A DNA stretch of 64,000 nt from Acidobacteriota bacterium (GCA_039931615.1 JBDTRR010000001.1:214210-278209); one strand, 5' to 3'. Shown: positions 349 to 15,054, numbered from the stretch's first letter. A program made the numbers and translations. Notes: generated by a model not told the origin, from the letters alone.

Positions 349-1607
349 CGTGCACTCCTGGTCTCCGCTGCCGCCGCCGGGGGCTGCGGCAGGGTGAAAG
401 CGAAGCGGCTGCCCTTGCCGAATTCGCTATCGACGGTGATTCGGCCGCCATGGGCCTCGACGAGGTGCTTGCAGATGGAGAGCCCGAGGCCCGAGCTCTG
501 CTCGTCGCCGGTCGGCCTGGTGCTGGTGCGCTGAAACGCGCCGAACAGCAACGGCAGTTCCTCGCGGCGGATGCCCTGTCCCTGATCGCTGACCGCCACT
601 GCCAGACCCGCATCGGTGGATCGGACGTCCAAGGTCACCGTCGTGCCGGGCCGCGAGAACTTGAAGGCGTTCCCAAGCAGGTTGTTGATCACCTGCCGGA
701 TGCGTTGAGGATCGAATGACACGACCGGTGATATCGGCCCGCACGTGACGGCCAGCCCGATGCCCTTGCGCCTGGCAAACAGCTCGTTGTACTTCGTGAT
801 GTCGCTCACGTAAGGGCCGATTTCGACCGGCCCGACCTGCAGATCGATCCGACCCGACTCGATCAGCGAGACGTCGAGGAGGTCGTTCAGCAGGGTCTGC
901 ATCTGCTGGGAGGTGTCGTAAATCAGGCCGACGAACTCCTTGGCCTCTTCGGCAGACACATCGTCGCCGCGGAGCAATTCGGCAAGGCTGTGAATGCCGC
1001 CAAGCGGCGTGCGCAGATCGTGCGCGGCGACGCCGAGCACCTGGTTCTTGATCCGGTTGGACTCTTCGAGCGCGATGTTCTTGTCGCTCAGCTCGCGCGT
1101 GCGCTGGCGGACCTTCTCCTCCAGCGTGGCGTTGGCCTGCTGCAGCTCGTCGATGAGACGGCGTCGTTCGCGCAAGAGGTGATGGTGTTCGAAGGCCTTC
1201 TCGACGACCGCTTCCAGCTCGGCGCCGGTCCAGGGCTTCGTCATGTAGAAGTAGATCTTCCCTTCGTTGACCCCCTCCACCACCGCCGGCAGGTCGGCGT
1301 AGCCCGTGAGCATGATCCGCGTCGCGTCCGGATTGCTGGCAGCAGCCGCGGCCAGAAACGCCGATCCGGTCATCCCGGGCATGCGCTGGTCGGAGATGAT
1401 CACGGCCACATTGCTGTTGGCAAGCTGGGCAAGCCCGTCGGCCGCGCTGGTGGTCGTGACCACCTCGCAACGATTCCTGAACAGGTCCGCGATGGACGAG
1501 CCGATCGCCGGCTCGTCGTCGACGACCAGCAGCCTCTCCTGCCGGCCCGCCGGATCGGCCGGCGCCGTCCGTGTGGGGCGGCCGAAACCCGGGCTCAGTG
1601 TGCTCAT
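345..1607 (-). CDS. Hybrid response regulator/histidine kinase (REC-HisKA-HATPase_c)
   Basis: N-terminal receiver ([11 protein letters not shown]...[12 protein letters not shown]...KPW), HisKA H-box (AAHDLRTPL), HATPase G-boxes ([22 protein letters not shown]). 15 bp downstream of the preceding kinase gene on the same strand. Confidence 0.85.
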
Positions 1608-1621
1608 GCCGCTTCTTTCTA

Positions 1622-3241
1622 TCAGGCCTCGGACCTGGAATCCGGGGCGCGCGCCGCCTGGAACGGGATGCTGATCGTCACCGTCGTCCCGTCGCCGAGC
1701 CGGCTGTCGATCGTGATGTCGCCGTGGTGCGCCGTGACGACCTGGTGGGCGATGTGCAGCCCGAGCCCGGTGCCCGAGCCGACCGGCTTGGTCGTGAAGA
1801 ACGGCTCGAAGACTTTCGCCAGATGCTCCGGCGCGATGCCGGTGCCGTGATCGGCCACCGTGATCACGTATCGATCGCCGTGCCGGGCAGACGAGACGAC
1901 CACCTCGCCCTGCGGCGGGCTCGCCTGCACGGCATTGGCAATGACGTTGCCGAGCGCCTGATTCAGCATGGACGGCGAACAGTAGAGCGGCGGCAGGTCG
2001 GCCAGTTCGGTCCGCACCGTCACCCGGGCCTCTTCCAGCAGCGGCGAGAGGAACCGCAGGGTCGCCGCGATGCCGTCGCTGAGTCCGGCCAGCTTGAATT
2101 GGCTCTCATCGAGGCGCGAGAACCCTCGGAGGTCGAGCACAATCTGCTTGATCCGCTCGAGCCCCTCGAGGGTGTGGGCGATCTTCTGCGGGATGGCCTC
2201 GGCCAGATACGCCAGATCGATCTCTCCCGCCTTGAGCAACAGGCGCTCCTGGACGTCGGCGCACGCCGCGCCCAACACGTCCATCGAATCGCCGACAACA
2301 TTGATGAACGCCAGCAGGCTCTGGAAGTCCCGCAGGAGGGTCGTCTGGCTGCTCAGCACGAAGGCGAGCGGATTGTTGATCTCGTGCGCGACGCCGGCGG
2401 TCATCTGGCCAAGCGAGGCCATCTTCTCCTGATGCACGAGCATCGCCTGCGCTTCCTTGAGCTTGACCAGCGCCTTCTCGAGCTCGCGCTTCCTGCGAAC
2501 GTTCTCCCGGGACAGGGTGGCCAGGTCGTTATTGAGCTGCAGTAACTCGTCCTGCAGCTTCTCGGCTTTCCTCGTCGGTGGTTCGCCGACGATGACGATG
2601 CCGTCTGGTTGCACGTCGATGCGGCAGAGCATCGAATAGGGAGCGTTGGGACCGACGAAGTTGAGCACCGTCGTTGCGGCGACGGCGCCTTCGTCGCCCG
2701 CGATCGCCCGGCGGAGCGTATCGGCGTCGGCCACGACGAGGTAATCCCACAGGAGGCTGCCGGTAACCTCGTCGGTGGTACGGCCCACGCCGGTGGCGAA
2801 CGCGGCGTTGCTCGTGAGGATCGTGCCATCGGGCGCGGCGGCGATCAGGTGAACGGTCCCGCTGTCGCGGAGGAACTTGGCCAGCAGCGGCGCCGAGTCT
2901 GCGGTCAGGCACTCCATCCCTTTTGGGGCGGCCGGCGCGTCGATGCGATCGAGTTCGAGCAGTTGCGTGTACGCGGGATCGAGCTTCAGCCCCTTCGGCA
3001 TGAAGCGATGAGACTGATGGTGCGCCGGGCTGTGGTGCCATCGCTGAAACGAGGACGAATCGCTCCAGCGGGTCACCAGGTAGAAGACCGTGGGGTCCTC
3101 GCGGCCGGTAAACGTCTCCATCCCGAGAAAGCCGGGCACGCCGTCGACGATGTGCGGGCGATGGACGAACGCGTCCCTCACCTCGGCTTCCATGCCGTTG
3201 GCGACTCTGAAGCGCGAGAGGGCTAGAATCATGCGCTTCAC
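1622..3241 (-). CDS. Sensor histidine kinase with N-terminal ABM (antibiotic-biosynthesis-monooxygenase/heme-oxygenase-like) domain, PAS, HisKA, HATPase_c
   Basis: N-terminus [41 protein letters not shown]...[20 protein letters not shown] is ABM-like. A PAS-like region and coiled coil follow, then H-box [10 protein letters not shown] and ATPase motifs [19 protein letters not shown]. Confidence 0.85.
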
Positions 3242-3649
3242 CTATCGTGGAGACGGCTCGGACGACCATCACAACCGGCGCGCCGATACACGGAGCGGCC
3301 AGGCAACCGCAGCAGTTGCCATTATTGCCCGTCAGAACATCCAGGACTGTGCTAAACGACACAGCCAGTCGGGTCGGAGAGATGCGCTCGGCCACTGCCC
3401 CAACGGAAATTGTCATCAATTGTCACCGGGCCAAGACGCCGACCAGGGGGCCGAAGAACGGATATGATCCGCCGCAAGTCGGGGATCTGAGAGCATGCTC
3501 ACGATCCGCAATTCCCTTCGGCTACCCACCCGACATTCCGCTGGCAAAGCTAGGCAAGCGCATGGAAGGGTTCGTCGGCGGCCGTGTCATTGGGCGCCTG
3601 GTCGATTCATAGTTCTGATACCGTTCTCTGGTCCCACGGAGGGGCCGCC

Positions 3650-4669
3650 ATGCGCCAGTGCTACGTCGCGGTGTGTGCCGCGTTCGCGATCGTCAGCCTC
3701 GTCCTCGTCGCTCACGCGCAGGGACCAGCCGTCTCATCAGCGGGACGTGCCGGCCGCCGGACCTACCAGGTGCCGCGCACGCCGTGGGGTGATCCCGACC
3801 TCGAAGGTAAGTGGCCCGGCAGCCTTGCCTCCGGCATTCCGCTGCAGCGTGCCGAGTCACTCGGCACGCGCGACACGCTCAACGATGCGGAATTCGCCGA
3901 CCGCGTGGCGCAGGCCGAACGCCAGAAGGATCAAGACGTCGCCGGCTTCGACTTCGATCACCCGAGCGTTCCCTTCGGAGTGGTCGGTGGGGGGCAGTCG
4001 CCGCCGCAGCACTGGTTCGAACGGTCCGCGCCGCAACGCCAGGCGTCGTTGATCGTCGATCCGCCGAACGGCCGCCTGCCGGCCATGACGCCGGCCGCAC
4101 AGCAGCGCATCGCCCAGCGGCGCGCGCGCGAGAACGGCGACTCCGCCTCGTACACGGACTTCACCCTGACCGAGCGCTGCATCACGCGCGGCCTCACCGG
4201 CTCGGTCCTGCCCGGCGGCTACAACAACGGGAACCAGATCGTGCAGTCGCCCGGGTTCGTGACCTTCGTCAACGAGATGATCCACGAATCGCGCATCGTG
4301 CCGCTCGACGGGCGGCCCCATCCGGGTCCGGCCATTCGCACCTACCTGGGCGACTCGCGCGGCCAGTGGGACGGCGATACACTGGTGATCGAGACGACGA
4401 ACTTCCTCGACCGGGCGGGTGTGGGCATGAGCGGCGCCGGCGCCAGCGACGCGCTGCAGATCACGGAACGCTTGACGCGCACCAGTGCCACGACCCTCGA
4501 TTACTCGCTGACCGTCAGCGACCCGGTGACGTGGACCGCGCCCTTCACGATCCGCTTCGACCTCGGCCGTGACGACCGCTATGGCATGTTCGAGTACGCG
4601 TGCCACGAGGGAAACTACGCGCTGCAGAACATCATGAGTGGCCAGCGCTTCGAGGAACGCAGTCGCTGA
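3650..4669 (+). CDS. Exported hypothetical protein (paralogue of 18095..18988)
   Basis: ATG at 3650 preceded by GGAGGGG. Signal peptide MRQCYVAVCAAFAIVSLVLVAHAQG. Shares blocks with the 18095 gene (DGRPHPGPAIRTYLGDSRGQWDGDTLVIETTNFLD, ITERLTR..TLDYSLTVSDPVTWTAPFTIRFDL, EYACHEGNYAL). No family recognised. Confidence 0.6.
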   Translation: MRQCYVAVCAAFAIVSLVLVAHAQGPAVSSAGRAGRRTYQVPRTPWGDPDLEGKWPGSLASGIPLQRAESLGTRDTLNDAEFADRVAQAERQKDQDVAGFDFDHPSVPFGVVGGGQSPPQHWFERSAPQRQASLIVDPPNGRLPAMTPAAQQRIAQRRARENGDSASYTDFTLTERCITRGLTGSVLPGGYNNGNQIVQSPGFVTFVNEMIHESRIVPLDGRPHPGPAIRTYLGDSRGQWDGDTLVIETTNFLDRAGVGMSGAGASDALQITERLTRTSATTLDYSLTVSDPVTWTAPFTIRFDLGRDDRYGMFEYACHEGNYALQNIMSGQRFEERSR

Positions 4670-4702
4670 CCTGGTCGGCTTCACTCTGAGGGCAATCACC
4701 GC

Positions 4703-6229
4703 ATGAAGTTGACGTCGATGGCGTGCGTAGTGGCCGTCGTGGCCTGCCTCCCCGCGAGCAGCGCGTTTGCCGCCACCTGCGAGAACCTCGCGAAGCTCGC
4801 GCTCAAGGACACGGCCGTCACCAAGGTGGAGGTGGTCGCGCCTGGCACGTTCCAGCCGCCCGACGGCCAACCGCGTGGCCGGAACCCGTATCAGGCGCTG
4901 GGTCAGTTCTGCCGCGTCGCGGCGACGCTGACGCCGACGAGCGACTCCGACATCAAGATCGAGATCTGGCTCCCGGCCAGCGGATGGAACGGGAAGTTCC
5001 AGGCGGTCGGCAACGGAGGCTGGGCAGGCATCATCAGCTACGCGGAGATGGCCGAGGCGCTGCAGAGCGGCTATGCCACGGCGTCGACCGACACCGGGCA
5101 CGCCGGAGGCCGCGGCACGTTCGCGCTCGGGCATCCTGAAAAGCTCGTCGACTTCGCGTGGCGTTCCGAGCACGAGATGACCGCCAAGGCCAAGGAGGTG
5201 GTCAACGCCTTCTACGGCTCGGCGCCGAAGCTGTCCTATTGGAACGGCTGTTCGACGGGCGGACGGCAGGGGCTCAAGCTCGCTCAGATGTTTCCCGATG
5301 ACTACGACGGGATCATCGCCGGTGCGCCGGCCAATCGCACCGCCATCTCGCTCTGGATCGCGGACGCGGTACTGAGAGATCCTGCCAGGTACATTCCGCC
5401 GGCCAGGTATGCCGTCATCCACCAGGCGGTGCTCGCCGCGTGCGACGCGGGCGACGGGGTGAAGGACGGCCTGATCGACGATCCGCGGCGATGCCGGTTC
5501 GACCCGGCGGTGCTGCTCTGCAAGGAAGGGGACGGCCCGGCGTGCCTCACGGCGCCACAGGTCGCGGCGGCCAAGCAGATCTACGCGAATGCCGTGAACC
5601 CGCGGACCAAGAAGGAGCTCTTCTCGTCGTTCGTGCCGGGCAGCGAACTCGGGTGGGGTGCGCAGGCGGCCGGCCCCGACGTGCAGGCCATGACCTACGA
5701 CCAGTATCGCTACGTCGTGTTCAAGGATCCGAACTGGGATTGGAAGACGTTCGACTTCGACCAGGACGTCGTGACCGGCGATCAGCCGGAGAACCTGATC
5801 ATGAACGCCACGAACCCGGACATGCAGGCGTTCTTCTCACACGGCGGCAAGTTGATCATGTACCACGGCTGGAGCGACCCGCTCGTGCCGCCGGTGAACA
5901 CCATCAAGTACTACGACCAGGTCGTGGCACAGATGGGCGGCGCGGCCAAGGCGGCGGGGCACGTGCGGCTCTTCATGGCGCCCGGCATGGGTCACTGCGG
6001 CGGCGGAGAAGGCCCCGACACGTTCAACAAGGTCAAGGCGATCGAGGACTGGGTGGAGCGCGGCAAGGCGCCCGCGCGCTTCGAGGCGTCACACAGCACC
6101 AACGGGCGCGTCGACCGCACGCGTCCACTTTGTCCATATCCGCAGGTGGCCCGGTACTCAGGGACGGGCAGCATCGACGACGCCACCAACTTCAGGTGCG
6201 TGTCGCCGCAAACGGCTGGCACCCAGTGA
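4703..6229 (+). CDS. Tannase/feruloyl esterase family alpha/beta hydrolase (secreted)
   Basis: Signal peptide [23 protein letters not shown]. Nucleophile elbow GCSTGGRQG and overall similarity to the tannase/feruloyl esterase family. 508 aa. Confidence 0.85.
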
Positions 6230-8081: not shown

Positions 8082-10049
8082 ATGCAATCTTTCGGAACCG
8101 CATTGTTCTGTCTTCTCACGGCGTCCGTTGCGAATGTGCTGTTCGCGCAGTCTCAGGGCTCAGTGGCGCAGCCGGGCGCCGTCGATCTCGAGCTGCCGAC
8201 GACGCAAGCGATCGGCGTCGAGTGGCGCATTCAGGGCGACGACAACCGCAATGCGTCCGTCGCTGTGGCGTGGCGCCGGACCGGCGACACGGCGTGGCGT
8301 GACGGTCTGCCGCTGCTTCGGTTGCAGGCCGAAGCAGTGCAGCAGGGCGCATCCTTTCATTACGTGGCGCCGAACATGTTCGCGGGCAGCGTGTTCGACC
8401 TCGAACCCAACACGTCGTATGACGTTCGGCTGCGGCTGACGGACCCGGACGCGCCGGCGGGCACTTCGCCCGTCGAGCGAACGGTCGCGGCCCGCACGAG
8501 ACCGGTCCCGAAACCCGCGACGGGCGGTGCGGTTTATCACGTGTATCCGCGCGATTACACCGGCCCGAAGCTGGAGCCGAGCTTCAACTCCCTGATGGCG
8601 GCGTACAACACCGGCGCGAACGGCGCCGATTTCGTCAATTCGTTTCAGCCGCGTGTGAAGCCGGGCGATGTCATCCTGGTTCACGCCGGGACGTATCGAG
8701 AGGATCGGCGGCGCTACGCGGGGCCGAACTCGACTCTGTTCGACGGCACGTTTTATCTCACCGCCGACGGCGCGGCGGACAAACCCATCGTCATCAAGAG
8801 CGCGGGGGACGGCGACGTCATCTTCGATGGCGGCGGCAACGCAGTGTTGTTCGATCTGACCGCGGCCGACTACCACTACGTCGAAGGGATTACGGTCCGC
8901 AACACGGATGTCGCCTTTCTACTCGGGCACAAACGCATCCTCGGCGCCGTTGGATTCACACTGAAGAATTCCCGGATCGAGAACGTCGGACGCGGCGTCT
9001 TCACCGATTGGGGCGGAGCGCGTGACTTCTACATCGCCGATAACGTTTTCATCGGCCGCAACGATCCGACGCGGCTGATGGGATGGATCGGACGCACCTG
9101 GCAAGACCTGCCGGGTTTTCCTCAACCGCTGCTCTCCGAGTACGGCGTGAAGGTTTACGGCTCGGGCCACGTGATCGCCCACAACCGCGTCGAGAACTTT
9201 CACGATGGAATCGACCACGCGACGTACGGCGATCCCGACGGCTGGCCGGAGAACCCGATCATGCCGGTTTCGACGGACATCATCGGAAACGATATCCGCA
9301 ACGTCGATGACAACTGCATCGAAGCCGACGGGAGCGCGCAGAATTTCCGCATCATCGAGAATCGATGCTTCAATATGGCGCATCGCGCGCTCTCCACGCA
9401 GCCCGCGCTGGGCGGGCCGATCTACTTCATCCGAAACATCGTCTACAACGCTCCCGAAGGCGGCGCCCTCAAAATCACGGCAAATTCGGCCGGCGTACTC
9501 GTCTATAACAACACGTTCCTTTCGGAAGTTCATCAGATGGGACCGGCGTCGAATCTCCACTTCCGGAACAATCTTGTTCTGGCGCAAGGCGCGTGGCCCG
9601 AGGTCTTCTCGATCGAGACGTTCACGCCGTGGTCGACTTCTGATTACAACGGATTTAGTTTGTCCGCTGCCGCCGGTTCTTCGCTGTTCGCCTGGGCGGC
9701 GCCGGCTGACGCTGCGGTCACGTACGAGGCCCGGGCAGCGCGTCCGGTTCAGTCGTTCGCCGACTTGAAGATCTACTCGGATCGCACTGGCCAGGATCGG
9801 CAGAGCCGAATGATCGACTGGTCGATATTCCGCAAAGCCAGTCCGCCGGCGAAGGGCGATCCCACGCGGCTGTATCGACCGGAAGACCAGGACTTCACGC
9901 TGGCTGCCGGATCCGGGGCAATCGATGCGGGTACGGTTCTGCCCGGCGTCACAGATGGCTTTACGGGCACGGCGCCGGACCTGGGCGCGCTGGAATCGGG
10001 GCGGGTCGTTCCGGCTTATGGCCCGCGGCCGCTTTCGGATCAACCGTAA
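8082..10049 (+). CDS. Secreted right-handed parallel beta-helix protein with N-terminal FN3/PAP-like domain (putative polysaccharide-active)
   Basis: Signal peptide MQSFGTALFCLLTASVANVLFAQS. N-terminal beta-sandwich region (NTSYDVRLRLTDPDAP). Repeated beta-helix turns (NNTFL, FRNNLV, IIGNDIRN). Confidence 0.7.
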   Translation: MQSFGTALFCLLTASVANVLFAQSQGSVAQPGAVDLELPTTQAIGVEWRIQGDDNRNASVAVAWRRTGDTAWRDGLPLLRLQAEAVQQGASFHYVAPNMFAGSVFDLEPNTSYDVRLRLTDPDAPAGTSPVERTVAARTRPVPKPATGGAVYHVYPRDYTGPKLEPSFNSLMAAYNTGANGADFVNSFQPRVKPGDVILVHAGTYREDRRRYAGPNSTLFDGTFYLTADGAADKPIVIKSAGDGDVIFDGGGNAVLFDLTAADYHYVEGITVRNTDVAFLLGHKRILGAVGFTLKNSRIENVGRGVFTDWGGARDFYIADNVFIGRNDPTRLMGWIGRTWQDLPGFPQPLLSEYGVKVYGSGHVIAHNRVENFHDGIDHATYGDPDGWPENPIMPVSTDIIGNDIRNVDDNCIEADGSAQNFRIIENRCFNMAHRALSTQPALGGPIYFIRNIVYNAPEGGALKITANSAGVLVYNNTFLSEVHQMGPASNLHFRNNLVLAQGAWPEVFSIETFTPWSTSDYNGFSLSAAAGSSLFAWAAPADAAVTYEARAARPVQSFADLKIYSDRTGQDRQSRMIDWSIFRKASPPAKGDPTRLYRPEDQDFTLAAGSGAIDAGTVLPGVTDGFTGTAPDLGALESGRVVPAYGPRPLSDQP

Positions 10050-10299
10050 CGTCCTGTCACTTCCGGCCGATGAACGACCGGAGCATCGGGACCATATGAA
10101 ATGGTTGCTGGGCATCGCGCGGCAGTTGATCCCTGGCGTGAATCGATGGAGGGACCGCTTCGGCATCGGCGATTTCCGAGACGTGCCCCAGGCCAGCGGA
10201 CCCCAGGTGCGCAAGCAGGGGATCGACGAACCGCAGACGCGCATCGCGCCGCGCCGCGGTCGTATTCCCTCGAACACGTACCGAGGCGTCGACAAACGA

Positions 10300-10620
10300 G
10301 ATGGCTGACGAGCGCTCCGGCCATGACGCCGATCGCGACCAGGGCGCCCATTGACGCGGTCGCGGACACCATCAAGAAACGGACGCGATCAGCTCGACCA
10401 CGCCCGAGCCGATCCGTCCCCAGTGCTCGACTCCGGCAACGCCCAGAAGCTGACCCAGTGTGCCGAAGATGTGGACCGATTCTTCGGCGCCCGTAAACTT
10501 GAAGAACAGGGTTGCAGCAGGATCGCGGCCACCAGAAACCGCACGATCCAGCTGACGACGGCTTCGGCCTTCGAGAGCTTGTTCAGGCCGGTTGGATGAC
10601 GCTGGCGGCGGCGTTACACC
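10300..10620 (-). pseudogene. DoxX-family membrane protein gene disrupted by two frameshifts (tentative)
   Basis: Three consecutive minus-strand frames each give DoxX-like hydrophobic segments: AVVSWIVRFLVAAILLQ, then LFFKFTGAEESVHIFGTLGQLLGVAGVEHWGRIGSGVVELIASVS(stop), then MVSATASMGALVAIGVMAGALVSHLV. Read by eye only. Confidence 0.3.
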
Positions 10621-10733
10621 GCGCGACGACTGTAACGCGCAGTCCGTTCAGGCATCCAAAGGGGGGGCCGACCTGGGGGGCCGATGGACCCACCTCGACG
10701 ATTTGGGCCGAAGATCAGATTGGCCGGGGCCGT

Positions 10734-12980
10734 TCAGCTCTCACCTACGCTCACGGGCCAGGGCTGCTGTGTGTTGGATCCCTGCGGCAGCACAGCGTAC
10801 GCCGCCGTCGTCTCTCCTGCCGCCTCCGAATCCCAGATTAGCGTCGAGGAGGAGAAGCGGATGAATCCATCCTCCTTCAACTGCATCAGCCCGAACAGAC
10901 AGACCTTCTCAGGCGGAATGCCGTCCACGTCCATTCCGAGCGCCGCGCACTCGCGGACGACTTCGCCGACGGTCCGGTGGCCATCGCACAAGCGCAGCAA
11001 TGCCGCCGACAGCGCCGGCAGCTGCCACACGTTGAGCGTCGCCTCGTTGCGGCTGAACACGATCGTCGTGTTTCGCGAGCCGATGGCGTCGAGGTCGGTC
11101 CTGTTTCGCAGGCACTCTATGAGTTCCTTGTAGTCCACTTCGACGTCGACGACACAGAGCCCGTCGGCGCAGTAGGCAACGGTGGAATCCGTCAGGCGAT
11201 CCGTTGCTTCGGCGGAGGCCGGCTGGGGCTGATGAATCGTGGCCTGCTCGGCCCGCGCCACTGCGCGTACCGCCGCGTTCGCCCTGGCCATTTCCGGCAG
11301 GTAGCAGGCGTGCACGAATTCGAGAAGGTCGGTGTGGAACCTTCGGTGCGAATGGTAGGGAGTCCAACCGATCTGCTCGTCTGTGTCGACAGGAGATCGT
11401 TCCGCCCGCCAGCGGCGCCACCGTTCGAAGACCAGCAGCAGATCGCCGCTGTCCTGCAGGAGCACCACCGGGAGCCAGCGGAACCAGGTCGCCAGGTAGG
11501 TGACGAAGTCGACCACGTCCTTCACCTCGCGCCGATCGAGGTGGGCCATCGGAATCGCGTAGAAGTTGGGGAACACGGCAGGATGCGCCTTGATCAGGGC
11601 GGCCTCAACCGGATCCTGCTGCCAGCTCTGATGCGACATGTCCGAGAAGAGATCGTCAAAAATCAAGTGATCCCGGTGCTGCTCGTAGATCGGTGTCGCG
11701 GCCAGCGGAGCCAGCAGCGAACACTGCGGCTCGACGTGGTCGTAGCGCAGCGAATCGACGAAGAAATGAATCGTGTCCCGAAGGTCGTCGCGCGTTTCTT
11801 CAGGGAAGCCGACGATCAATGCGACCGTGGTGTTGATGCCGTGGCGATCGGCGCAGGCAATCCGCTCCTTGGCCTCTGCCAGATCGAGCTGCTTGTTGAT
11901 GACCTGCTGCAACCGCTGCGATCCGGTCTCGATCCCGAAGAAAATGCCGGTACACCCAGCCCTGGCCATGAGCGCCAGCAGTTCGTCGTCGATGCAGTCG
12001 GTCCGGGCACTGCAGCCCCAGGTCAGGCCTTCCCCACTGGCCAGCATTGCCTCGCAAAAGGCCATCACTTCCTTGCGATCGATGGTGTACATGTCGTGGA
12101 CGAGGCTGAAGTAACGAAGGCCGTACTCCTTGTGGATGGCACTCATATCGGCAACCATCCTGGCCGGCGACTTGAGACGGAAGTTCCTCCGGAAGAAATC
12201 GTTGGTCGAACAGAACGTGCAGGCGAACGGGCAGCCTCTGCCAATCTCGAGGTGGACGCCGCCGCGCTGTCGCAGCCGCGAATCGAGATCGAACGCCGGC
12301 AGCGGCAGCCGATCCAGGTTTTCAACAACCGGGGCGTTCGGGTTGCGAACGATCTCGTCGCCGCGCCTGAACGTAATGCCGCCGAGCCGCTGCCATGCCG
12401 CGTCGGGATGGGCCAGGTGATGCAGGAGTGTGGGGAACGTGTCGTCGGCTTCGCCCCGGACGATGATGTCCACGGACGGGAAGGCGCGCAGCGTCGCCAC
12501 GTCCGCCACGGAGGCCTGCGGCCCACCGCCGACGATCGTGCACAGTGGGTTCGATCGCTTGATCGCATTGGCGAGGCGGAGCGTGAGCGGGTAGGAGCTG
12601 CAAATCGAGCTCAAGCCGAACACGTCGAAATCTCCGGGCCGGAGCTGCGCCGCCACGAACGCAAAGAAGGATTTCGACCGGGTCGTTTTCTCGCCGAGAT
12701 GCTGTGGACCGCCATCGGCCGGCGTGGCGCGCCGACGATCGCTCCGTCCGATGAATTCGAAGAACAGGTCGTCCAGGTTGACGACGACGGGAGCATGGCC
12801 ACGATCGCGCAGCAGGGCCGCGAGTGTCAGGACGCCCAGTTGTGCACCGGTGTTCACGTGCGCGTCGACGATCAGATCCGGATCGATGAAGTCGGCGACG
12901 GTCAGCGCGGTGACGAGGCACACGGAGGGCAGGGGGCCGGGGCCGCACGGCGGGACAGCGTGCGCGTCGTGAAGACGCAA
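10734..12980 (-). CDS. B12-binding radical SAM enzyme with C-terminal PqqD/RRE-like peptide-recognition domain
   Basis: B12-binding N-domain (VCLVTALTVADF...GLSSICSSYPL). rSAM cluster GCPFACTFCS (CxxxCxxC). C-terminal ATLNVWQLPALSAALLRLCDGHRTVGEVVRECAALGMDVDGIPPEKVCLFGLMQLKEDGFIRF matches the PqqD/RRE pattern. The ORF-track N-terminal 90 aa are an over-extension. The real start is probably a TTG/GTG near 12921-12990, just after the stop of the small upstream ORF. Confidence 0.8.
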   Translation of the reverse strand: MRLHDAHAVPPCGPGPLPSVCLVTALTVADFIDPDLIVDAHVNTGAQLGVLTLAALLRDRGHAPVVVNLDDLFFEFIGRSDRRRATPADGGPQHLGEKTTRSKSFFAFVAAQLRPGDFDVFGLSSICSSYPLTLRLANAIKRSNPLCTIVGGGPQASVADVATLRAFPSVDIIVRGEADDTFPTLLHHLAHPDAAWQRLGGITFRRGDEIVRNPNAPVVENLDRLPLPAFDLDSRLRQRGGVHLEIGRGCPFACTFCSTNDFFRRNFRLKSPARMVADMSAIHKEYGLRYFSLVHDMYTIDRKEVMAFCEAMLASGEGLTWGCSARTDCIDDELLALMARAGCTGIFFGIETGSQRLQQVINKQLDLAEAKERIACADRHGINTTVALIVGFPEETRDDLRDTIHFFVDSLRYDHVEPQCSLLAPLAATPIYEQHRDHLIFDDLFSDMSHQSWQQDPVEAALIKAHPAVFPNFYAIPMAHLDRREVKDVVDFVTYLATWFRWLPVVLLQDSGDLLLVFERWRRWRAERSPVDTDEQIGWTPYHSHRRFHTDLLEFVHACYLPEMARANAAVRAVARAEQATIHQPQPASAEATDRLTDSTVAYCADGLCVVDVEVDYKELIECLRNRTDLDAIGSRNTTIVFSRNEATLNVWQLPALSAALLRLCDGHRTVGEVVRECAALGMDVDGIPPEKVCLFGLMQLKEDGFIRFSSSTLIWDSEAAGETTAAYAVLPQGSNTQQPWPVSVGES

Positions 12981-12984
12981 TCGA

Positions 12985-13167
12985 TCAGACAACTTCGTTT
13001 TTGGACTTGGCCCGGACGTCGACGACCATGAGCTTCGACTTGGCGATCGCCGCGCTGTTCGCACCGAGGGTCTCGACGAGCTGCTTCTGAAAGGCCTTCT
13101 GAAGAGCGTCCTTCTGCTTCTTGGTGAGACTGAGTTCCGTCGGAATCTGAATCTCGATGTTCGCCAC
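12985..13167 (-). CDS. Small lysine-rich ORF (60 aa), candidate RiPP precursor / leader-like peptide
   Basis: GTG at 13167 preceded by GGAGG (13172-13176), 4 nt spacer. Encodes (M)ANIEIQIPTELSLTKKQKDALQKAFQKQLVETLGANSAAIAKSKLMVVDVRAKSKNEVV. Stop is 5 bp upstream of the rSAM coding start region. Amphipathic helix segment loosely resembles NHLP/Nif11-type leaders. Confidence 0.4.
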   Translation of the reverse strand: MANIEIQIPTELSLTKKQKDALQKAFQKQLVETLGANSAAIAKSKLMVVDVRAKSKNEVV

Positions 13168-13262
13168 GATGCCTCCAGGAATTGAGCCGCACCCTGACGC
13201 CGGAGACCGGCGCATGAATTCCGGGCGCACGCTAACACGCCTGATCCCAGGCCCGCAAGCAC

Positions 13263-14141
13263 CTATTTCTTCTGTTGCGCCTCCGCTTGGCGGACGCTCT
13301 CTGCGAATGACTTTTCCGCGTTCGCCACCATCGCCTTGAACGCCTCGGCGTCCAGGCATGTGACGCAGAGCGGATTGACGGGGAGCGCGGGGTTCAACGG
13401 ACGGCCGAGGTTCTGCCGGTGATTGTGAAGGAAGAGGTCCGGAGGCTGGAGCGCCTTCATCCTTTGCAAGGTCATCCTGGTATCCTCGATCACCTTGGGG
13501 TGCCTGGGATTGCCGATGAGTTGAAGTCCCGCGTTGGGAGTTTCACCGCCGCGGAATGCGACCGAATAGTTCTTGCCGCCTTCCGAGACGGTGGTCATCC
13601 ACACGGTGGCCCCCTGCGTATGCCCCGGCACCCAGAGGGCGCGCAAGGTCACGCCGCCCAGAGAAATCGTCTCTCCGTCCTTGATGACGCGATCGACGTG
13701 GACCGCCACCATGCCGCGGAAGCCCCCAGCGGAGTTGTCCTGACCGGCTTCAAGCGCTGCCGCATCGCCGCCGAGGGCGATGACCTGCGCTCCGGTCAAT
13801 TTCTTCATCGCCGCGTGTCCCTGGACGTGATCAAAATGCGCATGGCTCGAGATGATCATTTTGATGTCCTTGACGTCGAACCCCAGCTTCTTGACGTTCG
13901 ACACGATCACGTCGTGCATCTCGCTGGTGCCCGTGTCGTGGAGGATGTGGCCCTGCGGAGTCGTGATCAGATAAGAGCCATACTCGCCGCCGACCCAATA
14001 GATGTTGCCGATGATGCGGAAGCCTTCGGGCGGGCGCGCCTGATTCTGCGCCTGAATGGGTTCGACGCGTCCCGCGGCGCCGAGCGGTGCGATAATCCCG
14101 ATTGCCGCACCGAGCAGCATCAACGTACTAATCTGACGCAT
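13263..14141 (-). CDS. Subclass B3-like metallo-beta-lactamase fold hydrolase (periplasmic)
   Basis: Signal peptide MRQISTLMLLGAAIGIIAPLGAAG. Zinc motif SSHAHFDHVQG (HxHxDH), later His (WVPGHTQG). Length 292 aa. Confidence 0.85.
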   Translation of the reverse strand: MRQISTLMLLGAAIGIIAPLGAAGRVEPIQAQNQARPPEGFRIIGNIYWVGGEYGSYLITTPQGHILHDTGTSEMHDVIVSNVKKLGFDVKDIKMIISSHAHFDHVQGHAAMKKLTGAQVIALGGDAAALEAGQDNSAGGFRGMVAVHVDRVIKDGETISLGGVTLRALWVPGHTQGATVWMTTVSEGGKNYSVAFRGGETPNAGLQLIGNPRHPKVIEDTRMTLQRMKALQPPDLFLHNHRQNLGRPLNPALPVNPLCVTCLDAEAFKAMVANAEKSFAESVRQAEAQQKK

Positions 14142-14229
14142 AAGACCTCCGTCAACCTGTCATGGCCGGGCTCTGAAGCTCTGCCATCTTCCGGGAACTG
14201 AACCGGCCGAGTAAAGATGACCCTCGCCG

Positions 14230-15054
14230 CTACCGCGCGCCGACGCCCCTGCTCTCCGCACGTACGGTGACGACCACGCGGCGCGTGAGGTAGTCGTCGA
14301 TCCCGGTGGCTGTCGCGGGCTCGTCGTGCCAGGTCACCTTGTACGACGGCGCGTTCAGCTTCGCTCCCTGCAGCAGCACGGCAACCTGTTCCGCGCGCCG
14401 TTTCCCGATCGTGGGATCCTCGGCCATCGTCTGTCCGTTCGAGAGACGCACGGCGCCCCGGTGGCCGACGATCTCGATCTCCCGGGCGTTCGCCGCGCGC
14501 GCGAAATCAAGGATGTCGGACAGCAGGCGCGCATGGCTGAAGCCCACCGTGCCGTCGAAGTCGTAGGGCACGGTGAACTCTCTGCTCGAGGCGGCCGCGG
14601 ACGGCGGCGGCGGGACCGGCCGGGCGTTGTCGAAGGCCAGGCGTCCCTTGCTCGGCCCGGGGGGCCGCGGTGGTTCGAACGTCAGGTTGTAGCGCTCTTC
14701 AGCAGGCAGCATGGTGTTGCACGACGCGTCGCGCTCGGGGAGCACCGAGAGATGCACCGGCTTGAGCACGATGCCGCCGCAGATGCGGGGCTCAGCCGAG
14801 ACGGTCCCTTCCACCAGCACGCGGTGACCGAGCCACGGCGGGGTGACCGGTGCGCTCACGTCGGTCTGCAGCGTGAGGAAATACAGCTCGCCCTCGTACT
14901 CGGCGAGCCAGCAGGGCACCGAGGCCGTATCCCGAACAATCGGGCAGCTCACGAAGTTCCGGCGGGGCTCCTCGGCGCGGATGCCGACCGCGCCGGCGAC
15001 GAGCCCACCAGCCAGCAGCCAGGCGCCGCCTCGACTCATCCGGTGCGCGTGCAT
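14230..15054 (-). CDS. OmpA-family C-terminal domain protein (exported)
   Basis: ATG at 15054 overlaps the TGA of the upstream cytochrome gene (TGATG). Signal-like MHAHRMSRGGAWLLAGGLVAGAVG. C-terminal OmpA-like region (FDGTVGFSHARLLS...IEIVGHRG...DDYLTRRVVVTV). The ORF-track 5' extension overlaps the upstream gene and is rejected. Confidence 0.7.
   Translation of the reverse strand: MHAHRMSRGGAWLLAGGLVAGAVGIRAEEPRRNFVSCPIVRDTASVPCWLAEYEGELYFLTLQTDVSAPVTPPWLGHRVLVEGTVSAEPRICGGIVLKPVHLSVLPERDASCNTMLPAEERYNLTFEPPRPPGPSKGRLAFDNARPVPPPPSAAASSREFTVPYDFDGTVGFSHARLLSDILDFARAANAREIEIVGHRGAVRLSNGQTMAEDPTIGKRRAEQVAVLLQGAKLNAPSYKVTWHDEPATATGIDDYLTRRVVVTVRAESRGVGAR

Follow-up and report, generated by a model that had tools for sequence, protein, structure and literature searches.

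Among the described enzymes that act on peptides synthesised ribosomally and modified post-translationally (RiPPs), the nearest to the one considered here is ApyD of the aminopyruvatide pathway in Burkholderia thailandensis, a cobalamin (B12)-dependent radical S-adenosylmethionine (SAM) enzyme that contains a RiPP recognition element (RRE) and beta-methylates the penultimate Tyr of its precursor ApyA (PMC10635010). Val and Ile beta-carbons are the targets of PoyB and PoyC from polytheonamide-type pathways, class B radical SAM C-methyltransferases of which PoyC has a CX7CX2C motif (PMC11285071). MpcB of the clavusporin mpc clusters, likewise with CX7CX2C, hyper-beta-methylates Val, Ile, Thr and Pro in a core that is short and hydrophobic and comes after a conserved Arg; it depends on MpcC, a separate DUF5825 protein, and occurs in Actinobacteria only, in clusters with an S9 peptidase and a major facilitator superfamily (MFS) exporter; the 'short' mpc precursors carry alternating or consecutive Val/Ile (PMC10849626). 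Here, a 64,000-nucleotide stretch of DNA from an Acidobacteriota bacterium (GCA_039931615.1, JBDTRR010000001.1:214210-278209; hereafter the window, with a G+C content of 66%) was analysed for a two-gene cassette in which the gene for a 60-residue (aa) precursor-like peptide lies directly ahead of the gene for a B12-binding radical SAM enzyme to which a peptide-recognition domain is fused, all window features described below being on the minus strand. Comparison across related genomes points to a self-contained RiPP-type cassette, the probable function of which is leader-guided, B12-dependent C-methylation of the C-terminal segment of its own peptide.

The kind of system is already known, namely a precursor with an RRE-bearing B12 radical SAM enzyme. 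What is new is the leader family, an enzyme subfamily that scores under every curated cut-off, the strictly two-gene architecture and the mainly acidobacterial, cross-phylum distribution. No description of this peptide-enzyme family was found in the literature searched, coverage of which was incomplete, so that a prior description elsewhere is possible. No curated Pfam or NCBIfam model covers the peptides or their subtypes: neither database returned a family at threshold for the window peptide or 61 relatives, and six other core types had no match in NCBIfam. Acidobacteriota rank with the most abundant bacteria of soils, and very few natural products are known from them. At about 2.4 kb and two genes the cassette is small enough for direct synthesis and testing, and the family offers one shared leader with dozens of cores, additional clades being found in Streptomyces, Bradyrhizobium and elsewhere. 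As a lead for genome mining the cassette is solid and open to direct testing, but it is not a new principle.

The best curated match of the window enzyme is to ApyD (NF050148), at 343.1 bits across the B12-binding and radical SAM core (model positions 61-493 of 645), which is far under the equivalog cut-off of 750; Streptomyces and Bradyrhizobium relatives reach 366-370 bits. The C-terminal approximately 150 positions of the ApyD model remain unaligned, and the recognition module of the window enzyme instead resembles a separate partner protein, ApyI or TglI. ApyA ends in G-Y-L-Y-D, whereas the window peptide is unrelated and has neither that motif nor any aromatic residue, and the multinuclear non-haem iron-dependent oxidase (MNIO), cytochrome P450 and methyltransferase neighbours of the ApyD pathway are absent from the window neighbourhood, which has a beta-lactamase homologue and a beta-helix protein. 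The clavusporin precursors provide a likeness at the peptide level, the 'short' type resembling the cores of sister clades of the present family, e.g. VKVSVTVSVGF and RRRIVVVVVVVIVF, and an Arg ahead of a Val/Ile-rich core is seen in sister clades, as in LAAR-SVVIVVVV and ARRR-IVVVVV; the window core V-R-A-K-S-K-N-E-V-V has an Arg and a terminal Val-Val but is hydrophilic. In contrast to the mpc systems, the present enzymes have a CX3CX2C motif, a fused RRE, a different leader and a mainly acidobacterial distribution. Assignment to the clavusporin type was rejected on the different Cys motif and because the neighbours conserved in 84 family loci include no DUF5825 protein, S9 peptidase or MFS exporter. 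Proteusin precursors carry NHLP or Nif11 leaders. The preliminary description of the locus had drawn this analogy, which fails by sequence: neither leader model, NHLP (TIGR03793) or Nif11 (TIGR03798), matched the window peptide at E <= 1 or the 61 relatives at E <= 0.1, and on the PoyB/C model TIGR03975 (rSAM_ocin_1) the enzyme reaches 114 bits, the cut-off being 281.85.

The enzyme and its fused recognition module

The enzyme gene (10734-12923) encodes 729 aa from a GTG at 12923, or 748 aa from an alternative TTG at 12980, which lies 4 nt past the peptide stop and not 5 as first reported. The initial length of about 750 aa holds for the TTG start, and falls to 729 aa if the GTG is used. The initial module span of 10734-13262 does not hold, being a mechanical open reading frame (ORF) that, beyond the enzyme start at 12980 or 12923, overruns the peptide gene in another frame. 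A database protein identical to the window enzyme (P0072, named 'radical SAM protein') has 729 aa and covers 97% of the 748-aa query, and homologues have 0-30 residues ahead of a conserved SVCLVTAL. Full-length identity within the enzyme family is 55-100% among the matches listed.

The domain content is that of a class B (cobalamin-dependent) radical SAM enzyme. In the 729-aa form, a cobalamin-binding domain spans residues 91-166 (12426-12653; PF02310, 39.7 bits, cut-off 32.1) and was matched by 23 of the 23 homologues tested, followed by the radical SAM core at residues 226-387 (11763-12248; PF04055, approximately 80 bits, above threshold). The CX3CX2C cluster motif, read earlier as CPFACTFC, is located at 12210-12233, and CP(F/Y)xCxFC is kept in all full-length loci. 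Solved relatives by sequence are 9ccb, AprD4, CysS, TokK and OxsB.

The C-terminal part comprises a helical bridging domain (residues 470-607; 11103-11516), corresponding to the N-terminal half of a TglI/ApyI-like module, and an RRE of the PqqD-like winged helix-turn-helix type (residues about 619-691; 10851-11069). By sequence the PqqD match is weak, with a Pfam E of 0.037 in the window enzyme and E <= 0.01 in 6/23 homologues, and residues 549-678 match the model for ApyI, the recognition partner in the ApyD pathway, at E 1.6e-6, under its NCBIfam cut-off. A structure model of residues 470-729, built from a 71-sequence alignment, had a predicted local distance difference test score (pLDDT) of 86 and a predicted template modelling score (pTM) of 0.80; the modelled C-terminus folds like TglI and known RREs, and Foldseek retrieved TglI at E 3e-5 and probability 1.00. 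The module is accordingly described, on the modelled fold, as a TglI/ApyI-like helical domain plus winged helix, with the RRE assigned by fold. The PqqD/RRE domain proposed earlier is upheld, being weak by sequence and clear by structure. TglI, the partner of the MNIO TglH, and NGO1945-type proteins differ in being stand-alone and in serving iron-dependent oxidases rather than radical SAM enzymes, and sequence identity is only 11-15%. The known role of RRE-type domains is leader binding. The view that fusion of such a domain to a B12 radical SAM enzyme is in itself unusual was not borne out, ApyD having already been described as an RRE-containing B12 radical SAM enzyme (PMC10635010).

After a variable, disordered linker, the enzyme ends in the tail motif L-P-Q-G-S-N-T-Q-Q-P-W-P (10755-10790). 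In the form (P)PQxSNTQQPWP the tail is nearly invariant in the window and in loci L001, L003, L005-L016 and L054, and is absent from other clades, being found only in the clade whose peptides have ends of the ...(R/V)AK.K.(E/Q)VV type. It is disordered in the structure model (pLDDT < 50) and could be a docking motif or a pseudo-substrate. At loci L002-L004 and L086 (ENA contigs ERZ250394xx and ERZ250395xx) the enzyme gene is split across frames, probably by assembly frameshifts rather than as pseudogenes.

A leader-core peptide family paired with the enzyme

The peptide gene (12985-13167; GTG 13167-13165, TGA 12985-12987) is preceded by a Shine-Dalgarno GGAGG at 13172-13176, 4 nt ahead of the start, and its 60-codon translation plus stop reads MANIEIQIPTELSLTKKQKDALQKAFQKQLVETLGANSAAIAKSKLMVVDVRAKSKNEVV, with 9 Lys, no Cys and no GG; the coordinates, ribosome-binding site and Lys-rich composition agree with those first noted. 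The lack of Cys and of a GG site likewise holds for the window peptide itself, except that its L-G-A aligns with the L-G-G at the leader end of relatives. Public protein data contain 71 homologues, mostly 59-99 aa and 56-100% identical over the whole length, two of which are weaker partial matches that are shorter or N-terminally divergent. At homologous loci the start codon is at the same position, usually ATG, with GGAGG 4-10 nt ahead. The median ratio of non-synonymous to synonymous substitution rates (dN/dS) was 0.14 across 59 pairs from 13 peptide coding sequences, with synonymous sites near saturation, and GenBank holds an identical entry, hypothetical protein ABI868_00920 of an Acidobacteriota metagenome-assembled genome (MAG), from which the identical enzyme entry also comes. 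Because of these homologues, the shared start with GGAGG, the low dN/dS and the GenBank annotation, the ORF goes beyond chance and is a genuine gene under selection.

Alignments across multiple clades divide the peptide into two parts. The leader region (residues 1-35; 13063-13167) is the sole part conserved across clades and phyla, and has in the window a strand I-E-I-Q-I-P followed by L-S-L-T-x-x-Q...L...F...LVETLG, i.e. a predicted layout of a short beta-strand I-x-I-x-I-P and then an amphipathic helix G/S-L-T-x-x-Q...L...F...LVExLG. The cross-clade consensus, (V/I)x(V/I)x(I/V)P-x-(L/M)-G-L-(T/S)-x-x-Q-x3-L-x3-F-x-(N/Q)-x-L-V-x2-L-G, gives way beyond its end to complete divergence. The variable C-terminal 'core' (residues 36-60, ANSAAIAKSKLMVVDVRAKSKNEVV; 12988-13062) includes a clade-invariant V-R-A-K junction motif and a terminal E-V-V. 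Between clades the core is hypervariable, whereas within the window's clade V48, V51, R52, A53, K54, K56 and V60 are invariant and the last 13 residues (VVDVRAKSKNEVV) are the most conserved part of the peptide. The C-terminal sequence of the window, KSKLMVVDVRAKSKNEVV, is replaced by RSVVIVVVVVVVYAA and ARIIIRIRIRIIVVLAEH in two other acidobacterial clades, by RRRIVVVVVVVIVFSQAKV in Bradyrhizobium, NVKVSVTVSVGF in Kitasatospora, FIEVRISVSVGF in Streptomyces and NMGC(E/D)VP... in Ca. Angelobacter. Median Val plus Ile content was 0.23 in the C-terminal part versus 0.14 in the leader, across related sequences that are not independent. Because the leader is conserved across clades while the core diverges completely, the family has the signature of RiPP precursors with a leader/core architecture; on this comparison, the gene encodes a 60-aa precursor peptide with a leader of ~35 residues and, in the last ~25, a clade-specific substrate segment.

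A profile search of the full database with the window's clade as query returned peptides 33-96 aa long in 55 clusters (50% identity), a good many of them matched through the leader only. In their sequences the junction motif (A/V)(R/K)(A/P)K is followed by Val/Ile-rich tails, e.g. PEVVHPEVVVIVD or AEVVHVEVIAL. Among those on contigs of sufficient reach, two have a gene downstream, which carries the enzyme N-terminus in one case (L087) and is a long unidentified gene, cut by the contig end, in the other; one contig has three tandem peptides. At L088 the gene after a distant peptide homologue (719-931, plus strand) is not the enzyme but a fragment of an IS110-type transposase, which suggests insertion into a cassette.

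Co-occurrence of the peptide with the radical SAM enzyme had been named beforehand as a test of the module. A genome scan with one genome per species returned 80 loci, 77 of which could be evaluated with a peptide hidden Markov model against six-frame ORFs. In 47/77 the enzyme gene is immediately preceded by a co-oriented peptide match (at E <= 1e-3 in 27), and the closest loci, with enzymes at least 54% identical, are all paired except the frameshifted L016, where the peptide match lies farther upstream. Paired loci extend over Acidobacteriota, Streptomyces, Kitasatospora, Bradyrhizobium and Natronohydrobacter, with a weaker upstream match (E 0.033) for the Hoeflea enzyme. Most of the 80 loci are from Acidobacteriota (Vicinamibacterales, Pyrinomonadaceae, Blastocatellia, Ca. 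Angelobacter, Terriglobia and Edaphobacter aggregans DSM 19364), the others being from three Streptomyces, one Kitasatospora, Bradyrhizobium guangdongense, Hoeflea, Natronohydrobacter and a Planctomycetota MAG. The unmatched loci, mostly from Acidobacteriaceae, have other small ORFs of similar general layout at the same position. Several loci carry two or three tandem peptides and some genomes two cassettes, and no second cassette was found within the 64-kb window.

Metagenome contigs with close peptide homologues had the radical SAM gene directly downstream in all four contexts, with flanks that differ: subtilase and MgtE; ApbA, DUF411 and sulfatase; tetratricopeptide repeat (TPR) and G8 proteins. 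All-against-all clustering of ORFs from the 84 loci recovered nothing else conserved family-wide beside the pair, regulators being partial exceptions. The peptide is thus conserved and stays paired while the neighbours change, and by these comparisons peptide and enzyme are a conserved, self-contained unit with unrelated flanking genes.

Predicted chemistry and competing explanations

The peptide is likely the substrate of the enzyme encoded beside it. In the proposed mechanism, the fused C-terminal TglI/ApyI-like module, ending in its PqqD-type winged helix, would bind the leader, and leader binding would place the C-terminal segment at the active site, with its B12 and [4Fe-4S] cluster, where 5'-deoxyadenosyl radical chemistry and methylcobalamin would bring about one or more C-methylations. 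Judged from ApyD, PoyC and MpcB as analogues, the likeliest targets would be Val beta-carbons (V47/V48/V50 and/or the terminal V59-V60), giving tert-leucine-like residues. Candidate processing sites are (A/V)-R-(A/P)-K ahead of the Val-rich end and L-G-(G/A) at the leader end, for which proteases would be encoded elsewhere. C-methylation is the likeliest chemistry, with chances about even, because the nearest characterised relative, ApyD, beta-methylates near the C-terminus of its precursor, because MpcB and PoyC beta-methylate Val/Ile-rich cores like those found across the family, and because the known B12 radical SAM cross-link needs aromatic residues, of which the window core has none; Val as the modified residue is a more tentative proposal, drawn from the same analogies. 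If the enzyme does methylate unactivated carbons, it would provide a leader-guided, single-enzyme tool for placing tert-leucine-type residues in peptides, and a third, architecturally simpler route beside the polytheonamide and clavusporin systems.

Several observations weigh against this assignment. The chemistry is inferred solely from relatives under family cut-offs (343 versus 750 bits for ApyD), the PqqD sequence match is under the Pfam threshold, and the weakly matched B12 radical SAM models include TIGR04014 (methyl-coenzyme M reductase glutamine C-methyltransferase). AlphaFold2 (AF2) modelling of the peptide alone gave a single long helix of low confidence (pLDDT 63.6; helix from residue 16, with pLDDT of about 80 for residues 11-30) and no confident fold. 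The C-terminal segment of the window peptide is hydrophilic and cationic whereas those of other clades are hydrophobic poly-Val/Ile, and the invariant R, K, N and E of the window core are also possible targets. No leader peptidase, exporter or immunity gene was found conserved beside the pair in the 84 loci or the metagenome contigs, genes of which a leader peptidase or exporter is common in RiPP clusters but not obligatory.

The outcome of the same partnership might instead be a cross-link (C-C or C-heteroatom), a rearrangement or some other radical change in V-R-A-K-S-K-N-E-V-V, which is considered unlikely. B12 radical SAM chemistry is diverse and in RiPP pathways can include C-C cross-links, as with PbsB, which acts on a RiPP precursor and cross-links ortho-tyrosines in biphenomycin-type RiPPs (PMC12257519); the window enzyme has no equivalog among the characterised members, and the cores of sister clades can be very different, e.g. 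N-M-G-C-(E/D)-V-P with its Cys. Against this, PbsB acts on ortho-hydroxylated aromatics after MNIO action, whereas the window has no MNIO and its core neither an aromatic residue nor a Cys for the known cross-link types. Further, the Val/Ile richness common to cores across clades is the substrate profile of the beta-methylases PoyC and MpcB, and the nearest characterised relative is itself a methylase.

A bolder and less likely view departs from the cleave-and-export pattern altogether. The two genes would form a system that stands alone and is mobile between phyla, and its RRE-fused enzyme would modify a small cationic peptide or protein by unusual C-methylation or different radical chemistry, at terminal tert-leucines or at the invariant Arg, Lys, Asn or Glu, with the N-T-Q-Q-P-W-P tail as a docking or second-substrate element; the product would be active in or on the producing cell under stress-signalling control through a sigma-54 activator, or an extracytoplasmic function (ECF) sigma factor and Ser/Thr kinase. 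If true, this would constitute a new functional class of B12 radical SAM peptide modification in Acidobacteria.

Less probable again is that the 60-aa product is a small functional protein, either modified and used intact in the cell or acting as an accessory or regulatory partner of a radical SAM enzyme with another substrate. All 60 residues are conserved within the window's clade (56-100% identity), the neighbourhood has no protease or exporter, the cassette stands behind signalling genes in two clades (sigma-54 activator; ECF sigma factor and Ser/Thr kinase), and the weakly matching TIGR04014 family is named for methylation of an intact protein. Between clades, however, only the N-terminal approximately 35 residues are kept and the C-terminus is wholly replaced, including by runs like VVIVVVVVVVYAA, which is typical of leader/core peptides rather than folded proteins; peptides also occur in tandem copies, the peptide alone lacks a confident AF2 fold, and the enzyme bears a domain with a known leader-binding role.

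It is very improbable that the adjacent subclass B3 metallo-beta-lactamase homologue (13263-14141; HAHFDH metal motif) belongs to the module, e.g. as a peptide-processing hydrolase. It lies on the same strand, with 95 nt from its stop to the peptide start and no terminator-like site in the gap, but it is absent beside the pair in every related locus examined, no such family is among the conserved neighbours of the 84 loci, and it was rejected as a module member, in line with the earlier suggestion of independence. Its signal-peptide-like N-terminus and B3 match, at 227.8 bits against an NCBIfam cut-off of 240, are consistent with an ordinary periplasmic enzyme. An extremely improbable alternative raised initially, that the small protein is of the 4-oxalocrotonate tautomerase (4-OT) superfamily (beta-alpha-beta) and its radical SAM adjacency incidental, was rejected: a local likeness at the start of the leader helix (residues 13-34, 13066-13131; G-L-(S/T)-x-x-Q...L versus tautomerase G-R-S-D-E-Q-K...L) accounts for scattered weak matches to Pfam Tautomerase (E 0.11 in the window protein; 3/61 relatives) and TIGR00013 (8/61 relatives, best E 8e-5), but all are under curated cut-offs (PF01361 12.8 versus 22 bits for the window protein), the family profile found no tautomerase among PDB sequences at E <= 10, hhalign gave a probability of 0.4% against 4-OT (sequence checked against PDB 1bjp) and, with only 22 columns aligned, 1.7% against an alignment of 28 4-OT members, the start M-A-N has, as noted before, no catalytic Pro after the initiator Met, AF2 gave no beta-alpha-beta fold, the C-terminal half is hypervariable between clades and the adjacency is conserved across phyla.

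Genomic context of the cassette

Scans for control elements in the window gave little. The RNA fold between the peptide stop and the enzyme start had a z of -0.52, with no sign of an attenuator; a sigma-70 scan found no promoter-like sites; three terminator-like sites were found, none between the genes; and Rfam over 9500-14500 returned only a sub-threshold match to an internal ribosome entry site.

Regulatory genes recur upstream of the cassette in two groups of related loci. Eight loci of the window's clade, including six from Pyrinomonadaceae, have a sigma-54 activator upstream. At L007-L012 (Pyrinomonadaceae MAGs) and L054 (an unclassified Acidobacteriota MAG), a conserved box, TGGTACACTGCGCGC or TGGTATATTCCGCCG, lies about 40-55 nt ahead of the peptide start and may be a sigma-54 promoter; the box is absent from the window. 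In about 25 loci from Acidobacteriaceae, Bryobacterales and related groups, a ~960-aa Ser/Thr kinase with PD40 beta-propeller repeats is directly upstream on the same strand (L031, L035, L041, L055-L058, L061, L062, L065-L070, L072, L074-L078, L080, L081 and L084, at positions of about 2100-5700), and about nine of these also have an ECF sigma factor upstream (e.g. L056, L058, L066, L067, L070 and L084). The kinase/ECF context suggests signal-controlled expression.

At L038 of Streptomyces sp. NPDC056061 the cassette has divergent neighbours of lasso-peptide type (2199-5895, minus strand), namely genes for an asparagine-synthase-like cyclase and for a transglutaminase-like protease. They were rejected as cassette partners, being absent from L023, L030 and L034, and the adjacency is taken as chance because it is not conserved in the other Streptomyces/Kitasatospora loci.

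Just downstream of the enzyme in the window, at about 10290-10600, a DoxX/MauE-like membrane protein is spread over three frames (…VSWIVRFLVAAILLQ / TLFFKFTGAEESVHIFGTLGQLLGV… / LMVSATASMGALVAIGVMAGALVSHLV). The stitched sequence matches Pfam MauE at E 0.0044, under threshold, and the gene is either a pseudogene or interrupted by assembly frameshifts.

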